The notes beneath the pieces were generated by a model. It was not told the DNA's origin and searched no databases. It worked only from the letters and a program-made list of their open reading frames with translations. Position numbers and translations under genes: made by a program. 64,000 nt of DNA from Candidatus Omnitrophota bacterium. Lineage in GTDB: Bacteria; Omnitrophota; Gorgyraeia; Zapsychrales; Zapsychraceae. The DNA lies in contig JAGQKV010000018.1 of the NCBI GenBank assembly GCA_020429915.1, positions 69,770-133,769 of the forward strand. Direction: 5' to 3'. Shown piece after piece: positions 54,855-64,000 of this stretch; position 1 is the first letter of the stretch, and each line of letters starts with the position of its first letter.

Positions 54855-55244
54855 CTACAAGCGGTTCATGGTCGCGTTTAAGATGCGCAGAGACTCAGCT
54901 TCATTACCGAACGTCCCGTAACGGATCTTGATCTGTGCCGCCCGTTCCGTGAGGGCCTCGATATCGATCTTGATGGTCGTTCCGTCCTCACTCTCGGCAT
55001 GAATATCCGCGGACGACTGGCCGATCGATTCCTTGACCACAAATGCACCGATGTCACGCAGTCCGTCCAACGCCGCCGAATGAACGTCGGCATAATTCGC
55101 GTCCACGTTCTTGGCCAGCGCACCGGTGACATACGCGTATCCGCCGGCCCCCACCACCGCTCCGGCCACCAGCATACAACCTTGAGCGCACATAACGGTC
55201 AGGCTCAACAACGCCAACGACAACAAACTCGTAAATCTTTTCAT
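54855..55244 (-). CDS. small secreted/lipoprotein, tandem paralogue 2
   Basis: MKRFTSLLSLALLSLTVMCAQGCMLVAGAVVGAGGYAYVTGALAKNVDANYADVHSAALDGL..; same architecture as 54427..54819. Confidence 0.55.
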   Translation of the reverse strand: MKRFTSLLSLALLSLTVMCAQGCMLVAGAVVGAGGYAYVTGALAKNVDANYADVHSAALDGLRDIGAFVVKESIGQSSADIHAESEDGTTIKIDIEALTERAAQIKIRYGTFGNEAESLRILNATMNRL

Positions 55245-55266: not shown

Positions 55267-56565
55267 TCACGGCCGGAAAAACTCCTTCAAGGCGTCGGCC
55301 AGATTCTTGAGATCCTTTTTCGAATGCACACCGCTCACAAAGAAAGCCTCCAAATCGGCCGGGGGCCAGTAGATCCCGCGCGCCAACAAGTGGTGGAACA
55401 ACTCACCGTAGCGCTCGTGACCTTGAGCAGTTTGGGCATCGTGATAATTATAGACAGGATCCGACGAAAAACGAAGGCTCATCATGGAAAAATAATCACA
55501 GATATGAGCGGCAATGCCTTCGTCCCGGAAGAAGGTGTTCATTTCAGTGGCAAAAGCGTTGCACCGCGTATTCAGGGCCTGATAGAATTCGTCCGAGAGC
55601 AATTTGAGCTGGGCCAGTCCGGCGCGCATCACCACCGGGTTCCCTGAGAAGGTGCCGGCCTGGTAGACCGGCCCCAGCGGCGCCAGGTGATCCATAATCT
55701 CCGCCCGCCCGCCGTAGGCCCCGATCGGAAATCCGCCGCCGATGATCTTCCCCAAACAAGTCAGGTCGGGTGTGATGCCGACGTCGGCCTGCACCCCGCC
55801 GCGTTGCGGCCGGAATCCGCTCATGCACTCGTCGAAAATAAGTACCGTTCCGTGCCGGCTCGTCTCATCCCGCAGGCTCCGCAGAAACTCCAGCCGTGCC
55901 CGGATCACCCCCATGTTTCCCGCGACGGGTTCCAGAATGACGGCGGCAATCTGATCGCCCTGTTCGCCCATCACCTTTTCAAAAACGGCGGTGTCGTTAA
56001 ACGGCAGGCTGATGGTATTCTCGATATGGCTTTGCGGGATCCCCGCGGAAGATGATTCAGCCAGGGCCGCGACGCCGGACCCGGCCGTCGTCAACAAGTC
56101 ATCCACATGACCGTGATAACAGCCGTCGAACTTGATAATTTTGGCCCGGCTGGTGTAACCCCGCGCTAGCCGCAGCGCGCTCATCGTGGCCTCGGTCCCG
56201 GAATTGACGAAACGAATCTTCTCGATCGACGGCATGCTCTCCACAATAAACTCGGCAATTTCCACTTCGGCCCGTGTCGAGGCGCCGAAACTGATACCGC
56301 GTTCGGTCAGCTTCTTTGTCTGGAGAATGACATTGCGATGGGCGTGACCGGTAATTAGCGAACCCCATGACAGGCAGTAGTCGGTGTACTCATTGTCATC
56401 CTGGTCGGTCAGCGTGGCGCGGTGCGCCGACTTCATGACCAGCGGATGGCCGCCGACCCCCTTAAAGGAGCGTACCGGGGAATTGACGCCCCCGACCATC
56501 ACGGCGCACGCCCTCTCGTAAATTTTGTCGGAATTTGTCTGTTTGACCGTTGCGTGCTCAGCCAT
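55267..56565 (-). CDS. hemL: glutamate-1-semialdehyde 2,1-aminomutase
   Basis: 432 aa; ..YERACAVMVGGVNSPVRSFKGVGGHP.. aminotransferase class III, PLP-lysine region ..TPDLTCLGKIIGGGFPIGAYGG.. Confidence 0.9.
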   Translation of the reverse strand: MAEHATVKQTNSDKIYERACAVMVGGVNSPVRSFKGVGGHPLVMKSAHRATLTDQDDNEYTDYCLSWGSLITGHAHRNVILQTKKLTERGISFGASTRAEVEIAEFIVESMPSIEKIRFVNSGTEATMSALRLARGYTSRAKIIKFDGCYHGHVDDLLTTAGSGVAALAESSSAGIPQSHIENTISLPFNDTAVFEKVMGEQGDQIAAVILEPVAGNMGVIRARLEFLRSLRDETSRHGTVLIFDECMSGFRPQRGGVQADVGITPDLTCLGKIIGGGFPIGAYGGRAEIMDHLAPLGPVYQAGTFSGNPVVMRAGLAQLKLLSDEFYQALNTRCNAFATEMNTFFRDEGIAAHICDYFSMMSLRFSSDPVYNYHDAQTAQGHERYGELFHHLLARGIYWPPADLEAFFVSGVHSKKDLKNLADALKEFFRP

Positions 56566-58606
56566 AAATCATCATCTCGCTTTCGTAATTATGTTCCCGC
56601 AATGCCTGCTGCGTCACCGGACCTTTGCTGAGAATGGTCCAATCCGCCGGGATCGATTGATATTTGTCTAAAAAGCTATTCACCGTCGACGGGCTGGTAA
56701 AAATGATCTTATCCACTTGACCGGCGGGCAGCTCCGCCTTCGCAGTGGGCTCGTTGACGTAAACGGTCAGCTGGGTGACGTGCGCCCCCAGCTTTTCCAG
56801 TTCGGTTTTCAAATACGGATTGGGAAGATTGGAGCGCGGAAAGAGGATGCGTTTCCCCTGCACATCATACTTCTGCGTTAAAAGTCTGAACAGGCCGCGG
56901 GATGTTTCATCGGACGCCACATAACGAGGATGATAATCCGCGTCCATCAATGCCTGAGCCGTATCTTTGCCGATCACTACGATATCCTTCTCGGCCAGCA
57001 ATCCGCACATAGCCGGCCGGCGGCGCGCCAGTTCGAGAAAATGGACGACCGCAAAGCGGCTGGTCAGCAGAATGATGTCATACGCGGGGAAATCTGCGGC
57101 CAGCTGGTCGGCCTGCTCGCCGGTGATCTCGGCGGGTGAGATCTCGATCATCGGCAAATGGATAAGGCTGCCCATCGAGCGATATTTTTCCGGGTGGGTC
57201 CCCGTGTAAACAATCGTTTCCCGGTCCCGTTCGGGCCGATAAAATGTCACGACCTTGCCGATCACAATGAGTGCCGGCGGCTGGGCGTTCACCGCGCGGG
57301 CGCGGTCAACAATATTCTCGAGGTCGCCGGTCACGATCGTCTCATCATAACGGGTGCCCCGGGAAATGATCGCGACAGGCGTCGCGATGTCGCGCCCGGA
57401 GCCGCGCACAGCAAAGACGATCGCCTCCAGCTTGCTGAGCCCCATCAAAAATACCAGCGTGTCCACTCCCTGCGGGACATGAATCGCGTCGTTGCGGATG
57501 GATGTCTCCTCGGCCTGATGGGCGCTGAGAAACGCCACGGATGAGGAATAATCACGCGCCGTCAACGGCATCCCCAATCGCGACGGGATACCAGTGGCGG
57601 AGCTGACACCGGGGATGACATTGACACGCATATGATATTTGCGCAGATAACCGATTTCGTCGGCCCCGCGACCGAATATCAACGGATCGCCGCCCTTGAG
57701 CCGTACAACCTTCTTCCCCGCCATGGCCTGCTGACGGATCAACCGGCACAGCTCCTGCTGCAAAAGGGTGTGATCCCCTTTGCGTTTTCCGACATAGACC
57801 TTCTCGGCCTGCGGCGCATGCTCCAGAATGGCTTTATGGACGAGATAATCGTACATGACGCAATCCGCCGAGCGCAGGGCCTTCATCCCTTTTAAGGTGA
57901 TCAAATCCGGATCACCGGGACCGGCGCCGACCAAGGTGACTTCACCGTATTCGCGGCGCACGTCGAACGGTTCAAAAAACCGGCGCAACGCCCGGTTATC
58001 CCGGCGGCCGACCACGGCCAGCTGCCCTTGCAGCGGAAATCCTTCCCACGGCATGATGCCCGTAATCCGGTCTTCCAGGCCGAGGCGTTTCAGGGCCACG
58101 GTGGCGACGATCAAGCCGTCCAGTTCGCCGGCATCGATCTGAGCCAGCCGTTCTTCGATCGTGCCGCGCACGGCTACCAGTTCGCAGTCCGGTCGCAGAC
58201 GGGCGACCGACTCACGCCGCAAACCGCTGCTGGTACCGATGCGACTGCCCGCGGGGAGCCTGCCAAGGCTTTGCCGCCCGACGAAGGCGTCCGTCTCGTC
58301 GGGGCTGCGGGTCAGCGCGAGTATCATTAAATCAGCAGGCAGTTTTTCGGGAAGATCCTTGGCGCTGTGGACCGCCACGTCAATCAGGCCGTCCAGGACG
58401 GCCTGATCGAGAACATCGGTCCATAAATTGTCCTTTTTGTTCTGCATGAGCGACGTTTTTTTGTCGAGATCCCCGGCCGATTGAAACGTCTCATGCGTCA
58501 CGGAAATATCACGGCAGGCCTCGGCTATCATCGCCCGTAGCTCATCGACCTGAATAACGGCCAAGCGGCTGGCGCGCGAGCCGATATGTAGTTTTTGAAT
58601 AGGCAT
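56558..58606 (-). CDS. trifunctional fusion: porphobilinogen deaminase (HemC) + uroporphyrinogen-III C-methyltransferase (CobA/SUMT) + uroporphyrinogen-III synthase (HemD)
   Basis: 682 aa; N-terminal MPIQKLHIGSRASRLAVIQV.. (HemC), middle ..VTLVGAGPGDPDLITLKGMKALRSADCVMYDYLV.. (SUMT), C-terminal ~240 aa HemD-like; 8-nt overlap with hemL. Confidence 0.75.
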   Translation of the reverse strand: MPIQKLHIGSRASRLAVIQVDELRAMIAEACRDISVTHETFQSAGDLDKKTSLMQNKKDNLWTDVLDQAVLDGLIDVAVHSAKDLPEKLPADLMILALTRSPDETDAFVGRQSLGRLPAGSRIGTSSGLRRESVARLRPDCELVAVRGTIEERLAQIDAGELDGLIVATVALKRLGLEDRITGIMPWEGFPLQGQLAVVGRRDNRALRRFFEPFDVRREYGEVTLVGAGPGDPDLITLKGMKALRSADCVMYDYLVHKAILEHAPQAEKVYVGKRKGDHTLLQQELCRLIRQQAMAGKKVVRLKGGDPLIFGRGADEIGYLRKYHMRVNVIPGVSSATGIPSRLGMPLTARDYSSSVAFLSAHQAEETSIRNDAIHVPQGVDTLVFLMGLSKLEAIVFAVRGSGRDIATPVAIISRGTRYDETIVTGDLENIVDRARAVNAQPPALIVIGKVVTFYRPERDRETIVYTGTHPEKYRSMGSLIHLPMIEISPAEITGEQADQLAADFPAYDIILLTSRFAVVHFLELARRRPAMCGLLAEKDIVVIGKDTAQALMDADYHPRYVASDETSRGLFRLLTQKYDVQGKRILFPRSNLPNPYLKTELEKLGAHVTQLTVYVNEPTAKAELPAGQVDKIIFTSPSTVNSFLDKYQSIPADWTILSKGPVTQQALREHNYESEMMIYG

Positions 58607-58630: not shown

Positions 58631-59116
58631 TTACGGTTGCTGGTTATTCGGCATTATGTGCAGGAGATCGCCCACGGGGATATGTTTGATGTACGTCCGG
58701 ACCGGACGCTTAAAGTAAAACTGAATTCCCTGCAGGGTTTTTTGAACCCAATAAACCTCCCAGCGGTCCTGGCCGTAACTGTTGAGCTGTTCGGAAAGCT
58801 GTGCCTCGCTGCCGGCCGGCAGGGTGACGATCAGGTATTCCCAATCGCCGATACCCTTGATATCGTTAACGATCCAGTCTTTGCCTTTCTCACCCGCCTC
58901 ACGGGACTTGTCATACCAGGACTGAAAATCCTGCATCAATTGTTTCTGCTTTTCCGAAAACTTGTCCTCAAATTCCGCAAACGGATCCGCGGTCTTTTCC
59001 TGAGAGGCCTCGGCTGCGGATTCGGTATCTGCCTCACCGGCCGCTTTATCTTCAGCGGCTCCGACTGTGGTGATGAAAAAACCGACGATGAGTACGGTCA
59101 GCAGGGTCCTGTACAT
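58631..59116 (-). CDS. secreted DUF4177-like hypothetical protein
   Basis: ORF track start 59314; ATG at 59116 with AGGAG Shine-Dalgarno gives MYRTLLTVLIVGFFITTVGAAED.. (signal peptide), acidic linker, C-terminal ..DWEYLIVTLPAGSEAQLSEQLNSYGQDRWEVYWVQ.. Confidence 0.45.
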   Translation of the reverse strand: MYRTLLTVLIVGFFITTVGAAEDKAAGEADTESAAEASQEKTADPFAEFEDKFSEKQKQLMQDFQSWYDKSREAGEKGKDWIVNDIKGIGDWEYLIVTLPAGSEAQLSEQLNSYGQDRWEVYWVQKTLQGIQFYFKRPVRTYIKHIPVGDLLHIMPNNQQP

Positions 59117-59204: not shown

Positions 59205-62200
59205 TTACCAGCCGCCGCCGATCGACTTGATGAGCTGAACCGTGGCCAGCAGCCGCTGGGAAAGGATTTGCGTGGCCTGGAGTTCGGCATCCAACCGGGA
59301 CCGTTCGGCGTCAATAACCTCCAGGAATGTCACAAGCCCTTCCCGGTAGCGGGAAATGGAGAGTTTGGCCGTTTCCCGGGAGGACGTGAGGACACTGTAT
59401 TGAACCTTGGCCTGCTCCTGGTAATAATTGATATTGCTCATGGACGTCTCCACGTCACCGATCGCCTCCAGGACCGTCTGCCGGTAATCTTCGACTGTGC
59501 CGAGGTACTCGGACTCACTGGCATTGAGGTTGGCCTTATTGCGGCCGCCGCTGAAGATCGGCCACTCCACCTCCGGGCCGACCGCCCAGAAACGGCTTTC
59601 CCATTCGCCCAGATTGTCAAACTCAACGCTGCGCACTCCGCCGCTGGCGGACAAGGTCACCCGCGGAAAAAACGCGGCTTCCGCCACACCGATGCGCGCA
59701 TTGGCGGCGGCCACCTTGCGTTCGGCCATCGCGATATCCGGCCGTCTTTCCAGCAGATCCGACGGCAGGATCACCGGGACATCCGGGACGTCCTCTATCT
59801 TTAACGGCTTCTTGTCCACCTTGAAGTCGCCGGGCAGCTGTCCGCAGAGGACCGCCAGCGCGGTCTCGATTTCCCGGCGCCGGCGCATAATATCCACCCG
59901 GTCCGTCTTGGCCTTGGCTAGCTCGGTCTTGGCCCGGTTAAAATCGAGTTCACTGGTGACGCCTCCCTGGACCCGCTCCTGCACGACGTCCACCGCATAC
60001 TGACGGAGCTTTATAGCTTCATCAATAATATCGATCTGGCTGTCCAGCTGGCGCAGCTGAAAATAATTGGCCGCGACATCCGCTGTAAGAATCAGACGGA
60101 CGGAATAGAGTTCCGCCCGGGTTACCTCGGCCTCGGCCCGCGCGGATTCGAATCCGCGGCGCACACGCCCCCAAAAATCCAGTTCGTAACTGAGATCAAA
60201 GGGCGCACTGTAGAAACTGCTGGCAAAACTCTTCGTCCCGGCCGATGTGGAGTTGAAGCTGTTCTTGGTTGTCCGGGAACGTTCGTATTTCGGGTTGAAA
60301 TCTATCTCAGGATAGAATTCGCTTTGGGACACCCGCGCCAAAAACCGAGCGCGTTCGACATTCGCCACCGCGCTTTTCACATTATGATTGTTGGCCAGTG
60401 CCAATTCCTGCAGATCGTTGAGCCGCTCGTCCTTGTAGATTCTCCACCAGCGACCGCGGTCGGTATCGTCGCCCGGACTGGCGGCCTTCCAGCGGCCGCG
60501 CTCCGTCAGGCTCCAGTTGGAAGGAATAGTGAGTTCCGGACGCTGATAGTCCTTTCCGACCAGCGGTTGACATCCGCTCGCCGTCAGGCAAAGTATCAGA
60601 ATAACAGCAGCCGCGGCCTTAACCGGCGGGGTCGTCTGCTTGGCTGCAGGGGGGACATTCTTGGTCCGCCGGCGACGGTTCAGTAAGACGTACACGGCCG
60701 GTATAACAAGCAATGTCAAGAAGGTTCCCAGAGCGATCCCGCCCACGGCAGCCACGCCCAGCGGCCGGCGGCTCTCCGCCCCCGCGCCGAAACCGATAGC
60801 GATCGGCAATATTCCGGCAATCGTGGAAAAGGCGGTCATCAGGATCGGCCGGAAGCGCATCTTGCCGGCAGCCATCATGGCGCGCGCGGCATCCTTACCC
60901 TTATTCATTTCCTGATTGGCGAAGTCGACCAGCAGGATCCCGTTCTTGGTCACGATACCGATCAGCATGATCATCCCGATCTGACTGAAGAGATTGATGC
61001 CCATAGCCGGGATCCGCGGCCACGATGCCAGGAAAGATTCCGAACCTACCGCCGCCACAATCGCTGCGTCGAGCTTGGCCATCAGCCACAGCGAGCCCAG
61101 CGCTCCGAAAATCGACAACGGTAACGTGAACAGAATTACTAGCGGATCCTTCAGACTTTCGAACTGTGCGGCCAGCACCATGTAAATGATCAAGATCGCC
61201 AGCAAAATTACGAACAGCGTTTCGCTGCCGGCCTCGCGCAAATCTGCGGCCTCTCCGTTCCAGTCATACCTCAGCCCGCGCTCGTCAAGCTGGGCCAACA
61301 GAGCCTCTGTCCGAGTGATCGCCTCGCCCATCGGCACATCCCGGGGCGTGGCCTCGATCGTCGCCGAGCGCAGCCGATTAAAGTGATTGATCGTACTCGG
61401 GCCGCCGCCGGCTTCGTAGTCGATCAGATTAATCAGCTGGATCAATTTTCCTTCCTGATTGCGTATGTATATATCCTCCAAATCTGTCGGCGACAGACGT
61501 GATTTACGCTCCAGCTGGACGATCACATCATACTCCTTGCCTCCCAGGTTGACCCGGGCTAAATCGAGTCCACCGAACAGGATTTGCAGGACCTGGCTGA
61601 TGTCCCGCACCGACACTCCCAGCACAGCCGCCCGGTCGCGGTTGATACGGATCCGCAGTTCGGGTTTGTTCAGTTCAAAGGAGGAACGGACATTGGCGAG
61701 ATACCCCGCTTGACGGAGAGTCTGGCTGAACTCGGTGGCAATGCGGTTCAACTCATCCAGGTCCTGATGTTGCAGGACCAGCTGAAACGGCTGAGAAAAA
61801 CCGCGGCCGATCGCTTTCGGAATGATGGGGATGACCAGTGCGCCTTCGATGTTCATAAAGAATTGTCCGGCCAGCCCGGTCGGACCGTTGACGATGTCGC
61901 GAACGTGACGGTCACGGTTTTCCTTGAGACGGATAAAGGACAGCCCCTGCGAGGCTTGTCCGGGGCCGCCGCGCGCCAAGGCCACCGCCGAAAAGAATCC
62001 CTGAACTTCCGGCGTATTGCTGATAATGTCTTCCATTTTGCGCACCATGCGGTCGGTGTATTCACTGGTCGCCCCCTCCGGCGCGATGGCGATAATAAAC
62101 AATCTTCCCTTGTCTTCCTCAGGGAGAAATTCGCTGTCGAGATGATTATAAAAATAGAACGCTCCGGCGACCACGCCGACACAAAGCAACAAAATCAGGA

Positions 62201-63779
62201 AGGAATAACGCAACGTAAAGCCGAGCATTTTGACATAACCTTTGCGCCGCCGGTAGAGCCACTCTTCGAATCGGATCAGTAGGCCGCGTTTCTTGGTCTC
62301 GTGATGCGACTGCAAGATACGCGCGCACATCATCGGTGCCAGCGTCAGCGCAACGAATGTCGAGATGATGACGCTGAATGAAATGGCGACGGCAAATTCA
62401 ATGAACAGCCGACCGGTATCGCTTGTCTGAAAGGCCATCGGCAGAAAAACCGCGACCAGCGCCACGGTCGTCGCGATAACCGCGAAACCGATCTCCTTCA
62501 TCCCTTTGTACGCCGCTTCACGGGGCGGCATACCGTCTTCGATATGCCGGTGAATATTCTCTAAGACCACAATGGCATCGTCCACCACCAGTCCGATAGC
62601 CAGTACGAAGGCCAGCATGGTGATCACGTTGATCGAATAACCGAACATGTAGAGGATCCCGAAGGTGGCGGCAATGGACACCGGGATCGTGACCGCCGGA
62701 ATAAGCGTAGCGCGGAAATTGTGCAGAAAGATATAAATGACGAAGACCACCAGGAAGAAAGCCATCCCGAGCGTGATCCATACTTCCTTGATCGATTTCT
62801 CAATAAAGACCGACTCGTCGTAAGCGATATTGTAGTTGATCCCCTCCGGCATCAGCGGAATGATTTCCTCCATCTCCGCCTTGATGCCGTCGGCCACCTC
62901 AATGATATTGGCCTTGGACTGCTTAATGATCCCCAAACCGACGGCCGGTTCGGTATTGTAACGGGCCGCGGACCTCTCGTCCTCGACCCCCACTTCCGCA
63001 AAACCGATATCGCGCAAGCGCACCAGCTCATCACCCTGGCGCAGGATAACCATATTATCGTACTCCTCAGGGGTCTTGAGCTGAGCCTGGGTCTCGATGG
63101 CCAGTTCGCGCTGAAGGCTTTCAACACGCCCGCTGGGCAGCTCCACGCTTTGCTCGTTCAAGGCCCGCTGAACGTCCAACACGGTGACGCGGTGGGCCGC
63201 CATTTTGTCCGCATCCAGCCGGATGCGGATGGCAAAACGTTTGGATCCTCCCAAGATGACGGAACTCACCCCCGGCACGGTCTGCAGGCGGTCCTTGAAT
63301 AAATTCTCGCCGATGGTGGTCAACTCAAGAGTCGAGAATCGTTCGCTGTACAAGGCGACCCAGATGGAAGGACTCGCGTCGGCGTCTTGCTTGGACACGA
63401 TCGGCTCTTCAATATCGTCCGGCAACCTTCCCCGCACACGGGCCACGCGGTCACGCACGTCCTGGGCGGCGATGTCGACATCCTCTGACAGATCAAACTC
63501 GATGGTGATGGAACTCAGCTGCTCGCGACTTTCCGAAGTGATCTTCTTGATCCCCTCGACACTGGACAGGGCGTCCTCCAAAGGCTCGGTGATCTGGGTC
63601 TCGATGACCGCGGCATTCGCACCGGGATAAACCGTCTGCACGTTTACGATCGGCGGATCGATATCAGGCAGCTCGCGTACCGGCAGACGGGTCAATCCCA
63701 CCACACCGAACAACACCAGCAGGAGGCTCATCATCGTCGCCAGAACCGGACGTTCAATGCTGATCTCAGATAATTTCAT
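59205..63779 (-). CDS. RND efflux permease (AcrB/HAE1-like, ~1050 aa) continuous in-frame with an outer-membrane factor (NodT/TolC-family lipoprotein, ~470 aa)
   Basis: Single 1524-aa ORF. N-terminal part MKLSEISIERPVLATMMSLLLVLFGV.. with 12 TM and two large periplasmic loops; after ..VLLNRRRRTKNVPPAAKQTTPP the frame continues into VKAAAAVILILCLTASGCQPLVG.. (signal-like segment + lipobox Cys at ~60572) and two TolC-like coiled repeats. No in-frame ATG/GTG/TTG or stop at the junction (~60570-60700). Confidence 0.7.
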   Translation of the reverse strand: MKLSEISIERPVLATMMSLLLVLFGVVGLTRLPVRELPDIDPPIVNVQTVYPGANAAVIETQITEPLEDALSSVEGIKKITSESREQLSSITIEFDLSEDVDIAAQDVRDRVARVRGRLPDDIEEPIVSKQDADASPSIWVALYSERFSTLELTTIGENLFKDRLQTVPGVSSVILGGSKRFAIRIRLDADKMAAHRVTVLDVQRALNEQSVELPSGRVESLQRELAIETQAQLKTPEEYDNMVILRQGDELVRLRDIGFAEVGVEDERSAARYNTEPAVGLGIIKQSKANIIEVADGIKAEMEEIIPLMPEGINYNIAYDESVFIEKSIKEVWITLGMAFFLVVFVIYIFLHNFRATLIPAVTIPVSIAATFGILYMFGYSINVITMLAFVLAIGLVVDDAIVVLENIHRHIEDGMPPREAAYKGMKEIGFAVIATTVALVAVFLPMAFQTSDTGRLFIEFAVAISFSVIISTFVALTLAPMMCARILQSHHETKKRGLLIRFEEWLYRRRKGYVKMLGFTLRYSFLILLLCVGVVAGAFYFYNHLDSEFLPEEDKGRLFIIAIAPEGATSEYTDRMVRKMEDIISNTPEVQGFFSAVALARGGPGQASQGLSFIRLKENRDRHVRDIVNGPTGLAGQFFMNIEGALVIPIIPKAIGRGFSQPFQLVLQHQDLDELNRIATEFSQTLRQAGYLANVRSSFELNKPELRIRINRDRAAVLGVSVRDISQVLQILFGGLDLARVNLGGKEYDVIVQLERKSRLSPTDLEDIYIRNQEGKLIQLINLIDYEAGGGPSTINHFNRLRSATIEATPRDVPMGEAITRTEALLAQLDERGLRYDWNGEAADLREAGSETLFVILLAILIIYMVLAAQFESLKDPLVILFTLPLSIFGALGSLWLMAKLDAAIVAAVGSESFLASWPRIPAMGINLFSQIGMIMLIGIVTKNGILLVDFANQEMNKGKDAARAMMAAGKMRFRPILMTAFSTIAGILPIAIGFGAGAESRRPLGVAAVGGIALGTFLTLLVIPAVYVLLNRRRRTKNVPPAAKQTTPPVKAAAAVILILCLTASGCQPLVGKDYQRPELTIPSNWSLTERGRWKAASPGDDTDRGRWWRIYKDERLNDLQELALANNHNVKSAVANVERARFLARVSQSEFYPEIDFNPKYERSRTTKNSFNSTSAGTKSFASSFYSAPFDLSYELDFWGRVRRGFESARAEAEVTRAELYSVRLILTADVAANYFQLRQLDSQIDIIDEAIKLRQYAVDVVQERVQGGVTSELDFNRAKTELAKAKTDRVDIMRRRREIETALAVLCGQLPGDFKVDKKPLKIEDVPDVPVILPSDLLERRPDIAMAERKVAAANARIGVAEAAFFPRVTLSASGGVRSVEFDNLGEWESRFWAVGPEVEWPIFSGGRNKANLNASESEYLGTVEDYRQTVLEAIGDVETSMSNINYYQEQAKVQYSVLTSSRETAKLSISRYREGLVTFLEVIDAERSRLDAELQATQILSQRLLATVQLIKSIGGGW

Positions 63780-64000
63780 AGAATTTCTTTTCGCTAAGGT
63801 CTTCGAAACGGACGTTCACTTTGGATCCGGGGCCGATTTTTTGATAGCCTTCGGTCACCACAACCTCATCGGCCTCCAACCCGGTGACGATCTCCACCAT
63901 CCCCTCGCGGCGGGTCCCGACGGTTACCTGTTTCAGGGCCACGGTGTCATCTTCTCCGACCGTGTACACCGAGACACTATCCCCTTTAATAATCAGGGCG
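63766..64000 (-). CDS. RND efflux membrane fusion protein (periplasmic adaptor), C-terminal end; gene continues beyond right edge
   Basis: ..GDSVSVYTVGEDDTVALKQVTVGTRREGMVEIVTGLEADEVVVTEGYQKIGPGSKVNVRF.. typical MFP C-terminal beta-barrel/MP domain; 14-nt overlap with permease start. Confidence 0.65.
   Translation of the reverse strand, partial: ALIIKGDSVSVYTVGEDDTVALKQVTVGTRREGMVEIVTGLEADEVVVTEGYQKIGPGSKVNVRFEDLSEKKFYEII

Follow-up and report, generated by a model that had tools for sequence, protein, structure and literature searches.

An RND permease and a NodT-family outer-membrane factor share one reading frame in Candidatus Omnitrophota, with signal-peptide anatomy at the junction

Can the inner-membrane pump and the outer-membrane channel of a drug efflux machine be made as one polypeptide, and, if so, how would the two parts reach their different membranes? 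This question is raised by a stretch of 64,000 nucleotides of DNA from a Candidatus Omnitrophota bacterium (hereafter called the window), in which a single open reading frame (ORF) of 1524 codons with an ATG start, located on the minus strand at 59205..63779 (NCBI record MCA9394794.1), runs through a permease of the resistance-nodulation-division (RND) type and then through an outer-membrane factor (OMF). Gram-negative bacteria owe their intrinsic multidrug resistance mainly to tripartite RND pumps. An earlier reading of the letters alone (the sequence-only reading) had described this continuous RND::OMF ORF without stating its strand, and the description was confirmed: the minus-strand translation yields ..VLLNRRRRTKNVPPAAKQTTPPVKAAAAVILILCLTASGCQPLVGKDYQRP, the same text that had been quoted there, and a longer read-out of the product across the junction gives ..AVYVLLNRRRRTKNVPPAAKQTTPPVKAAAAVILILCLTASGCQPLVGKDYQRPE.. 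A plus-strand reading of 59205..63779 was dropped, its translation being riddled with stops. The parts of the ORF, as delimited by the sources given in parentheses, are the following.

59205..63779, minus strand: the RND::OMF fusion ORF (ORF listing, Pfam, NCBIfam, NCBI record MCA9394794.1)
60678..63779, minus strand: RND permease module (HAE-type, RND_permease_2-like), aa 1-1034 (PF00873, NF033617, hydropathy)
60624..60677, minus strand: basic tail with linker on the cytoplasmic side, aa 1035-1052 (RRRRTKNVPPAAKQTTPP), the putative n-region of an internal signal peptide
60573..60623, minus strand: 13th hydrophobic segment, the putative h-region, aa 1053-1069 (VKAAAAVILILCLTASG) (hydropathy)
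60570..60581, minus strand: lipobox A-S-G-C, aa 1067-1070, with predicted lipidation at Cys1070 (PROSITE-style lipobox pattern)
59205..60572, minus strand: mature NodT-family OMF module, aa 1070-1524 plus the stop codon (TIGR01845, two OEP repeats, PDB matches)

In the permease module, PF00873 (ACR_tran) matched with 961 bits (E=6e-289), and the RND-permease profiles (ACR_tran and NCBIfam) span aa 1 to ~1042, end to end in NCBIfam. Since the scores of NF033617 (1016 bits) and NF000282 (845 bits; aa 6-1035) both fall under the strict 1250-bit naming cut-offs, the assignment to a permease subfamily is a loose one. Hydropathy analysis revealed 12 hydrophobic segments, the last at 1015-1033, followed by an extra one at 1052-1070. 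The 12 transmembrane (TM) segments, two large periplasmic loops and cytoplasmic C-terminus that characterize RND permeases are all found, the cytoplasmic orientation of the C-terminus being predicted on the grounds that AcrB/MexB are homologues and that the tail (RRRR-K) is basic. The proton-relay motifs are present as well, namely VVDDAIVV in TM4, VTKNGILLV with its TKNG in TM10, and RFRPILMT in TM11, and were matched to AcrB D407/D408, K940 and R971 by motif recognition, not by structural alignment. The OMF module, in turn, matched TIGR01845 (outer_NodT) with 379.7 bits (cut-off 210.05) over profile positions 2-460 of 460 (aa 1062-1523), contains PF02321 (OEP) in two stretches, and matched PDB 6u94 (2.8e-56), OprM (1wp1, 2.2e-54), OprJ and CusC, all at full length; it is a NodT-family lipoprotein homologous to OprM, OprJ and CusC over its whole length. 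The fusion ORF is not a chance product, because both halves are complete, high-scoring domains that share one frame.

The frame is also reproducible and maintained. The identical 1524-aa protein was found in 42 blocks of the assembly collection, the 24 contigs read carry it, and MCA9394794.1 (from a Candidatus Omnitrophota metagenome-assembled genome, MAG) was found on 31 contigs; both a 528-kb ENA contig (L001) and a Logan contig (L002) differ from the window ORF by 0 nucleotides. There is also a diverged allele in another MAG (GCA_020429985.1, L084:3001-7575), which is 98% identical in protein sequence and differs at 420 of 4575 nucleotides (9%) with the frame intact. The codon changes between the two alleles comprise 375 synonymous and 33 non-synonymous ones, and dN/dS (Nei-Gojobori) amounted to 0.017 in the permease and 0.025 in the OMF, against 0.39 in aa 1035-1069, the linker and hydrophobic segment, which form the fastest-evolving stretch of the ORF. 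Signal peptides usually evolve fast, and the rate at the junction is comparable. The low dN/dS of the permease and the OMF indicates that both halves are translated in the fusion frame and functional. Collectively, the fusion is real and maintained by purifying selection, and what lies at its junction is built like a signal peptide.

Synonymous divergence between the two alleles was uneven along the ORF (dS of 0.57 in the permease part and 0.27 in the OMF part), which may reflect recombination or differing codon constraints.

At the junction, the basic residues RRRR-T-K, K1047 and K1054 lie ahead of the 13th hydrophobic segment, and the uncharged core past K1054 comprises 15 residues, which is the length of a signal peptide and not that of a TM helix (Kyte-Doolittle averages of 1.86 over 19 residues and 2.38 over 15 residues). 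As had been noted in the sequence-only reading, this segment ends in a lipobox Cys near 60572: codon 1070, TGT, occupies 60572-60570, the preceding residues (..LCLTASG/C) fit the lipobox pattern, and the +2 residue is Gln. When the product was aligned to mature OprM (PDB 1wp1), K1076 paired with OprM residue 5; Cys1070 is therefore ≤2 residues from the lipidated Cys1 of mature OprM. The Cys is invariant in the homologue alignment (A1) and stands ≤7 residues from the conserved DYQRPE motif, with no spacer between the membrane segment and the motif. Where NodT-family proteins have an N-terminal signal peptide on a separate precursor, the window protein has an internal one (aa ~1035-1069). The sequence-only reading was also right that no in-frame start codon exists at the junction, as there is no ATG, GTG or TTG between the GTG codon 1029, inside TM12, and Cys1070.

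It had further been proposed that a 13th TM helix carries an OMF that remains tethered to the pump. The 13th hydrophobic segment is indeed there, but a lasting tether is not what the junction suggests: because the Cys sits at the start of mature OprM and no periplasm-spanning spacer follows the segment, the most natural interpretation is release by signal peptidase II. We consider it probable that this genuine, selectively maintained fusion is a polyprotein with an internal lipoprotein signal peptide that is split after membrane insertion. Cleavage, lipidation and sorting of the OMF, as we infer them from the sequence, would proceed as follows. One polypeptide would be made, of which the 12-TM permease inserts co-translationally and ends on the cytoplasmic side with its basic tail. 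The 15-residue hydrophobic stretch would then insert with its N-terminus in and C-terminus out, like the signal peptide of a lipoprotein, so that the OMF part is carried across the inner membrane. Lgt would attach diacylglycerol to Cys1070, signal peptidase II (LspA) would cut ahead of it, and the freed OMF would be N-acylated, moved by Lol to the outer membrane and assembled as an OprM-like trimer, leaving a C-terminal stub, a short 13th helix, on the permease. Permease and OMF are each trimeric in solved pumps, and the fusion would presumably supply the two in strictly equimolar amounts.

The closest mechanistic analogue known to us is FbcH, the cytochrome b-c1 polyprotein of Bradyrhizobium japonicum, in which, as reportedly found by Thony-Meyer et al., an internal signal peptide is cut by signal peptidase I. 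In FbcH, a polytopic module is said to end in the cytoplasm and to be followed by an exported second protein, giving two subunits of one complex at 1:1. The layout of polytopic module, internal signal peptide and exported module is the same here; the polytopic module, positive charges, hydrophobic core, peptidase site and exported module of such a polyprotein are all found in the window protein and in at least 33 others. The two systems differ in that FbcH is processed by signal peptidase I into products that stay at the inner membrane, whereas the window fusion has a predicted signal peptidase II site and a product destined for the outer membrane, and in that processing has been shown for FbcH and is predicted for the window fusion. 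SecDF of Bacillus subtilis is a natural fusion within the RND superfamily itself, in which adjacent genes have merged with function unchanged. However, SecDF joins two inner-membrane modules, whereas the window fusion joins proteins for two different membranes; because its parts have these different destinations, it needs proteolytic separation.

A tripartite RND pump requires a cognate periplasmic adaptor, the membrane fusion protein (MFP), and its gene is found directly upstream, overlapping the start of the pump ORF by 14 nucleotides at its stop.

63766..64000, minus strand: 3' end of the MFP gene, cut by the window edge (translation ends ..RFEDLSEKKFYEII, then the stop)

On the identical ENA contig, the full MFP has 371 aa with BSH_RND, HH_MFP_RND and Beta-barrel_RND domains, a MarR gene lies upstream of it, and the operon shows no separate OMF gene. 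The operon thus consists of a MarR regulator, an MFP and the RND::OMF fusion, a tripartite pump from two structural genes. The components and their order (regulator, MFP, RND, OMF) are those of mexA-mexB-oprM of Pseudomonas or of acrAB with a NodT/OprM-family OMF, and the permease has its proton-relay motifs. Compared with canonical three-gene RND operons, the window lacks a stop and a start between RND and OMF, and its signal peptide is internal, after 12 TM helices. In function, the system is predicted to be an ordinary MexAB-OprM-like tripartite pump.

The architecture recurs well beyond the window. With the junction (aa 880-1260) as the query, 1.84 billion cluster representatives (50% identity) were searched exhaustively by HMMER; of the best 150 matches, ~51 span the junction, and these include at least 19 full-length proteins of 1372-1557 aa. 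A few matches rich in GC were gene-calling junk. The matches of a word-indexed protein search were all <700 aa and did not include the cluster of the query itself, and the census rests on HMMER and cluster look-ups. RND::OMF fusions were thereby found in at least ~50 clusters from Omnitrophota, Verrucomicrobiota, Kiritimatiellota, Acidobacteriota and Bacteroidota, with Prevotella sp. (a 33-member cluster), Acidobacteriota/Bryobacteraceae (a 10-member cluster) and Verrucomicrobiales among the named members. Two occur in finished genomes with an MFP gene preceding the fused gene: Kiritimatiellota bacterium B12222 (CP120722.1, 4.43 Mb; WFB35000.1; L167 5001-9512), whose junction has an in-frame Met 31 residues ahead of the Cys, and Sphingobacterium sp. 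SYP-B4668 (CP115483.1, 5.4 Mb; WP_270090608.1; L166 5001-9566). Both are apparently cultured isolates and would be usable experimental systems for this architecture.

The partners joined in these proteins vary, with an RND_permease_2 and a NodT protein in the window, an RND_permease_2 and a TolC-type non-lipoprotein in P0138, P0202 and P0215, and an RND_permease_1 and a NodT protein in P0146, P0309 and P0278. Since the partner pairs differ, the fusion has arisen several times. Among 33 other fused junctions of the lipobox type, the median length of the hydrophobic core is 16 residues and the +2 residue is never Asp; in 18 of the 33, the stretch 12-40 residues ahead of the Cys contains no Met. 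The TolC-type fusions have no lipobox Cys, and their junctions read like signal peptidase I sites (AKA/E in P0138, LAA/QQQ in P0215). The type of cleavage site at the junction therefore tracks the type of exported partner, which is the pattern expected if the junction site is used. Verrucomicrobiales-like metagenomic RND::NodT fusions (P0001, P0002, P0004, P0008, P0123 and P0125) have lost the lipobox Cys and have AxA-like signal peptidase I sites (SANA/G, SAQA/G, SEA/A) just ahead of a conserved GPDY; some fused forms, the Cys-less Verrucomicrobia type for example, might, as a rarer variant, stay tethered or be released in another way.

Fused and unfused forms coexist among close relatives. 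The sequence-only reading had proposed comparing orthologues for a stop codon and an ATG at the junction, and the comparison came out both ways: the nearest relative found, in an Omnitrophota MAG (GCA_020430025.1, L003), has both, whereas L084, L085 and L087 are fused. In L003, whose permease is 76% identical to that of the window over its C-terminal third and whose OMF is 61% identical, a TAA stop after ..LLNKRKRKNK is followed by a 17-nt spacer and the OMF's own ATG (MKSILMSF...), and the lipobox lies at the homologous position (FLFLTGC/ALVGDDYTRPE). A 61% identical homologue (P0121; GCA_964477075.1, L085:6001-10539) is fused and keeps the MarR-MFP-pump order, and P0122, L086 and L087 are likewise fused; the linkers of fused homologues at 50-61% identity differ. 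The only informative relatives contributed by a metagenome scan were L086/L087, which are fused, and L088, which is not. In a scan of a genome collection made up of GTDB representatives, a set that does not include the window species, L051 and L075 first counted as junction-spanning matches and were dropped as unfused, because separate high-scoring segment pairs had been summed. In neighbor-joining trees, the fused and unfused states are patchy within the window subfamily (the permease tree being without the L003 fragment), a pattern that would fit either repeated fusion, the simpler reading, or fission. The usual gene order is RND and then OMF, RND-OMF gene pairs often have short or overlapping junctions, and the topologies are compatible, a C-terminus inside being followed by a signal peptide; the gene order and compatible topologies explain why fusion is tolerated and recurrent, and, because the topologies fit, a frameshift or a lost stop codon would do no harm.

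In P0121, an in-frame TTG is found 20 codons ahead of the lipobox Cys, from which a perfect stand-alone signal peptide, MKEPVKALTILLVAAIFFSGC, would be read if it were used; this TTG may be the former start codon of the OMF. Another feature that varies among the relatives is an insertion of ~25 residues in the permease between TM9 and TM10 (aa ~900-925, window ~61000-61080, minus strand; AKLDAAIVAAVGSESFLASWPRIPAMG), which splits the Pfam and NCBIfam permease matches near residue 912. It is common to L003 and P0121, longer in P0138 and absent in P0122.

Several points weigh against the polyprotein that releases its own OMF. Lgt and LspA would have to act on a lipobox behind 12 TM helices, with sorting by Lol thereafter, and a full-text literature search found no natural internal signal peptidase II site. 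Some fused homologues keep an in-frame start codon where the signal peptide begins (ATG in P0181 and P0146, TTG in P0121), so that dual expression is possible there. Finally, L003, the nearest relative found, and L088 are unfused, from which it follows that the fusion is dispensable for function. A stronger version of the polyprotein reading, that the fusion is an adaptive device and not a tolerated accident, the first natural internal substrate of signal peptidase II and one selected independently in at least five phyla, is offered tentatively, and we would sooner doubt it than adopt it; if true, an inner-membrane pump and its outer-membrane channel would thereby be coupled in their synthesis, membrane targeting and 1:1 stoichiometry.

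Of the alternatives, the one that survives best, though unlikely, is that cleavage never takes place and a permanent 13th TM helix keeps the OMF covalently bound to the permease. The segment does score as membrane-spanning, and cleavage of the fusion is a prediction. The position of the Cys, ≤7 residues from DYQRPE and ≤2 from the lipidated N-terminus of mature OprM, however, leaves no linker able to span the distance from the inner to the outer membrane. In solved structures, the N-terminus of the OMF is anchored at the outer membrane, >100 Å from the inner membrane. A permanently tethered OMF is implausible on account of this placement and the missing spacer. Moreover, the 15-residue core argues for a signal peptide rather than a TM helix, and a lipobox or an AxA-type site is kept in independent fusions, which is sensible only if the site is used.

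Less probable still is that the OMF is mostly made separately, from an internal CTG, ATT or ATA start or by frameshifting or slippage at a run of six C residues, with the long ORF being incidental; a non-canonical internal start had also been suggested in the sequence-only reading.

60649..60654, minus strand: C6 homopolymer, adjoining an out-of-frame ATG at 60658-60656

Suitable codons are indeed present in the junction (CTG at 1033, 1061, 1065 and 1073, ATT at 1060 and ATA at 1062), the C6 run formally reads X_XXY_YYZ, and in-frame starts are retained in P0121 (TTG), P0181 and P0146 (ATG). Against this, the window and L084 have no candidate start codon in common, which speaks against an internal start as the main route, and no canonical in-frame start exists near the junction of the window, L084 or the Sphingobacterium locus. 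The codons at 1060-1062 leave ≤10 residues before the Cys and no charged n-region, and a promoter and terminator scan of the junction found nothing on the coding strand, where no Shine-Dalgarno-like motif was seen either. Non-canonical starts are very weak in bacteria, and such initiation would be set against a need for equimolar OMF. A frameshift would not reach the OMF, since the alternative frames at the window junction stop within ~20 codons.

It is highly improbable that the ORF is a recent neutral or decaying fusion, an incipient pseudogene with no functional OMF product. The patchy distribution among close relatives would fit such decay, but the OMF half has a dN/dS of 0.025 over a dS of 0.27 and gives a complete, high-scoring NodT match, and no separate OMF gene was seen in the operon.

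The least credible alternative, also raised in the sequence-only reading, is a sequencing or assembly artefact in which one base lost from the C6 run removed the permease stop between what are really two genes. In its favor, a simulated +1 C at 60649-60654 makes the permease end in ..NVPPCSQADDPAG-TAA and the OMF begin with MSPPAAKQTTPPVK at the ATG 60658-60656, bearing the textbook lipoprotein signal peptide MSPPAAKQTTPPVKAAAAVILILCLTASGC, and the nearest relative found has separate genes. This explanation was discarded, however, since the protein recurs in 42 blocks, the ENA and Logan contigs agree with the window at every base, the 9% diverged L084 allele (junction AAA GAT AAG CCC CCC GCA) lacks both the out-of-frame ATG and the TAA and still has an intact frame under strong purifying selection (dN/dS ~0.02 in both halves), and the linker sequence varies among fused homologues at 50-61% identity. 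The C6/ATG/TAA layout is possibly the scar of the fusion event, or a coincidence, and not an error.

No description of a natural RND-OMF fusion was found in the full-text literature search, which is not proof of its absence from the literature. Reviews present RND pumps as three separate proteins, and a 2021 Chem Rev review, in the portion of its text that was accessible, mentions no such fusion. The sequence-only reading had known of no precedent; that holds for the literature as far as searched, but not for sequence databases, in which the architecture is recurrent and where IMG labels proteins of this kind with a two-part name, 'HAE1 family protein/NodT family OMF'. NCBI calls the window protein only 'efflux transporter outer membrane subunit' and other fusions only 'RND permease', a warning that single-function names hide RND::OMF fusions there. 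One prediction from the fusion is that 12 preceding TM helices do not keep the lipoprotein-processing machinery from acting on a signal peptide, and the fusion constitutes a natural experiment on co-synthesis and 1:1 dosage in pump assembly and on partner specificity. Without cleavage, the implications for the architecture of the envelope would be much more surprising.

Downstream of the fused gene, three further features of the minus strand were observed. A 161-aa ORF without a Pfam match and with a hydrophobic N-terminus (MYRTLLTVLIVGFFITTVGAAE) lies directly downstream (58631-59116), and an ORF of this kind holds the same position at the diverged L084 locus. Two genes downstream of the pump, a 682-aa ORF (56558-58606) combines HemC (a porphobilinogen deaminase domain), TP_methylase (uroporphyrinogen-III methyltransferase) and HEM4 (uroporphyrinogen-III synthase), and is thus, by its Pfam domains, another multi-gene fusion. 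The ORF at 54855-55244 and the next minus-strand ORF downstream are tandem DUF3568 (PF12092) paralogues of ~130 aa each.

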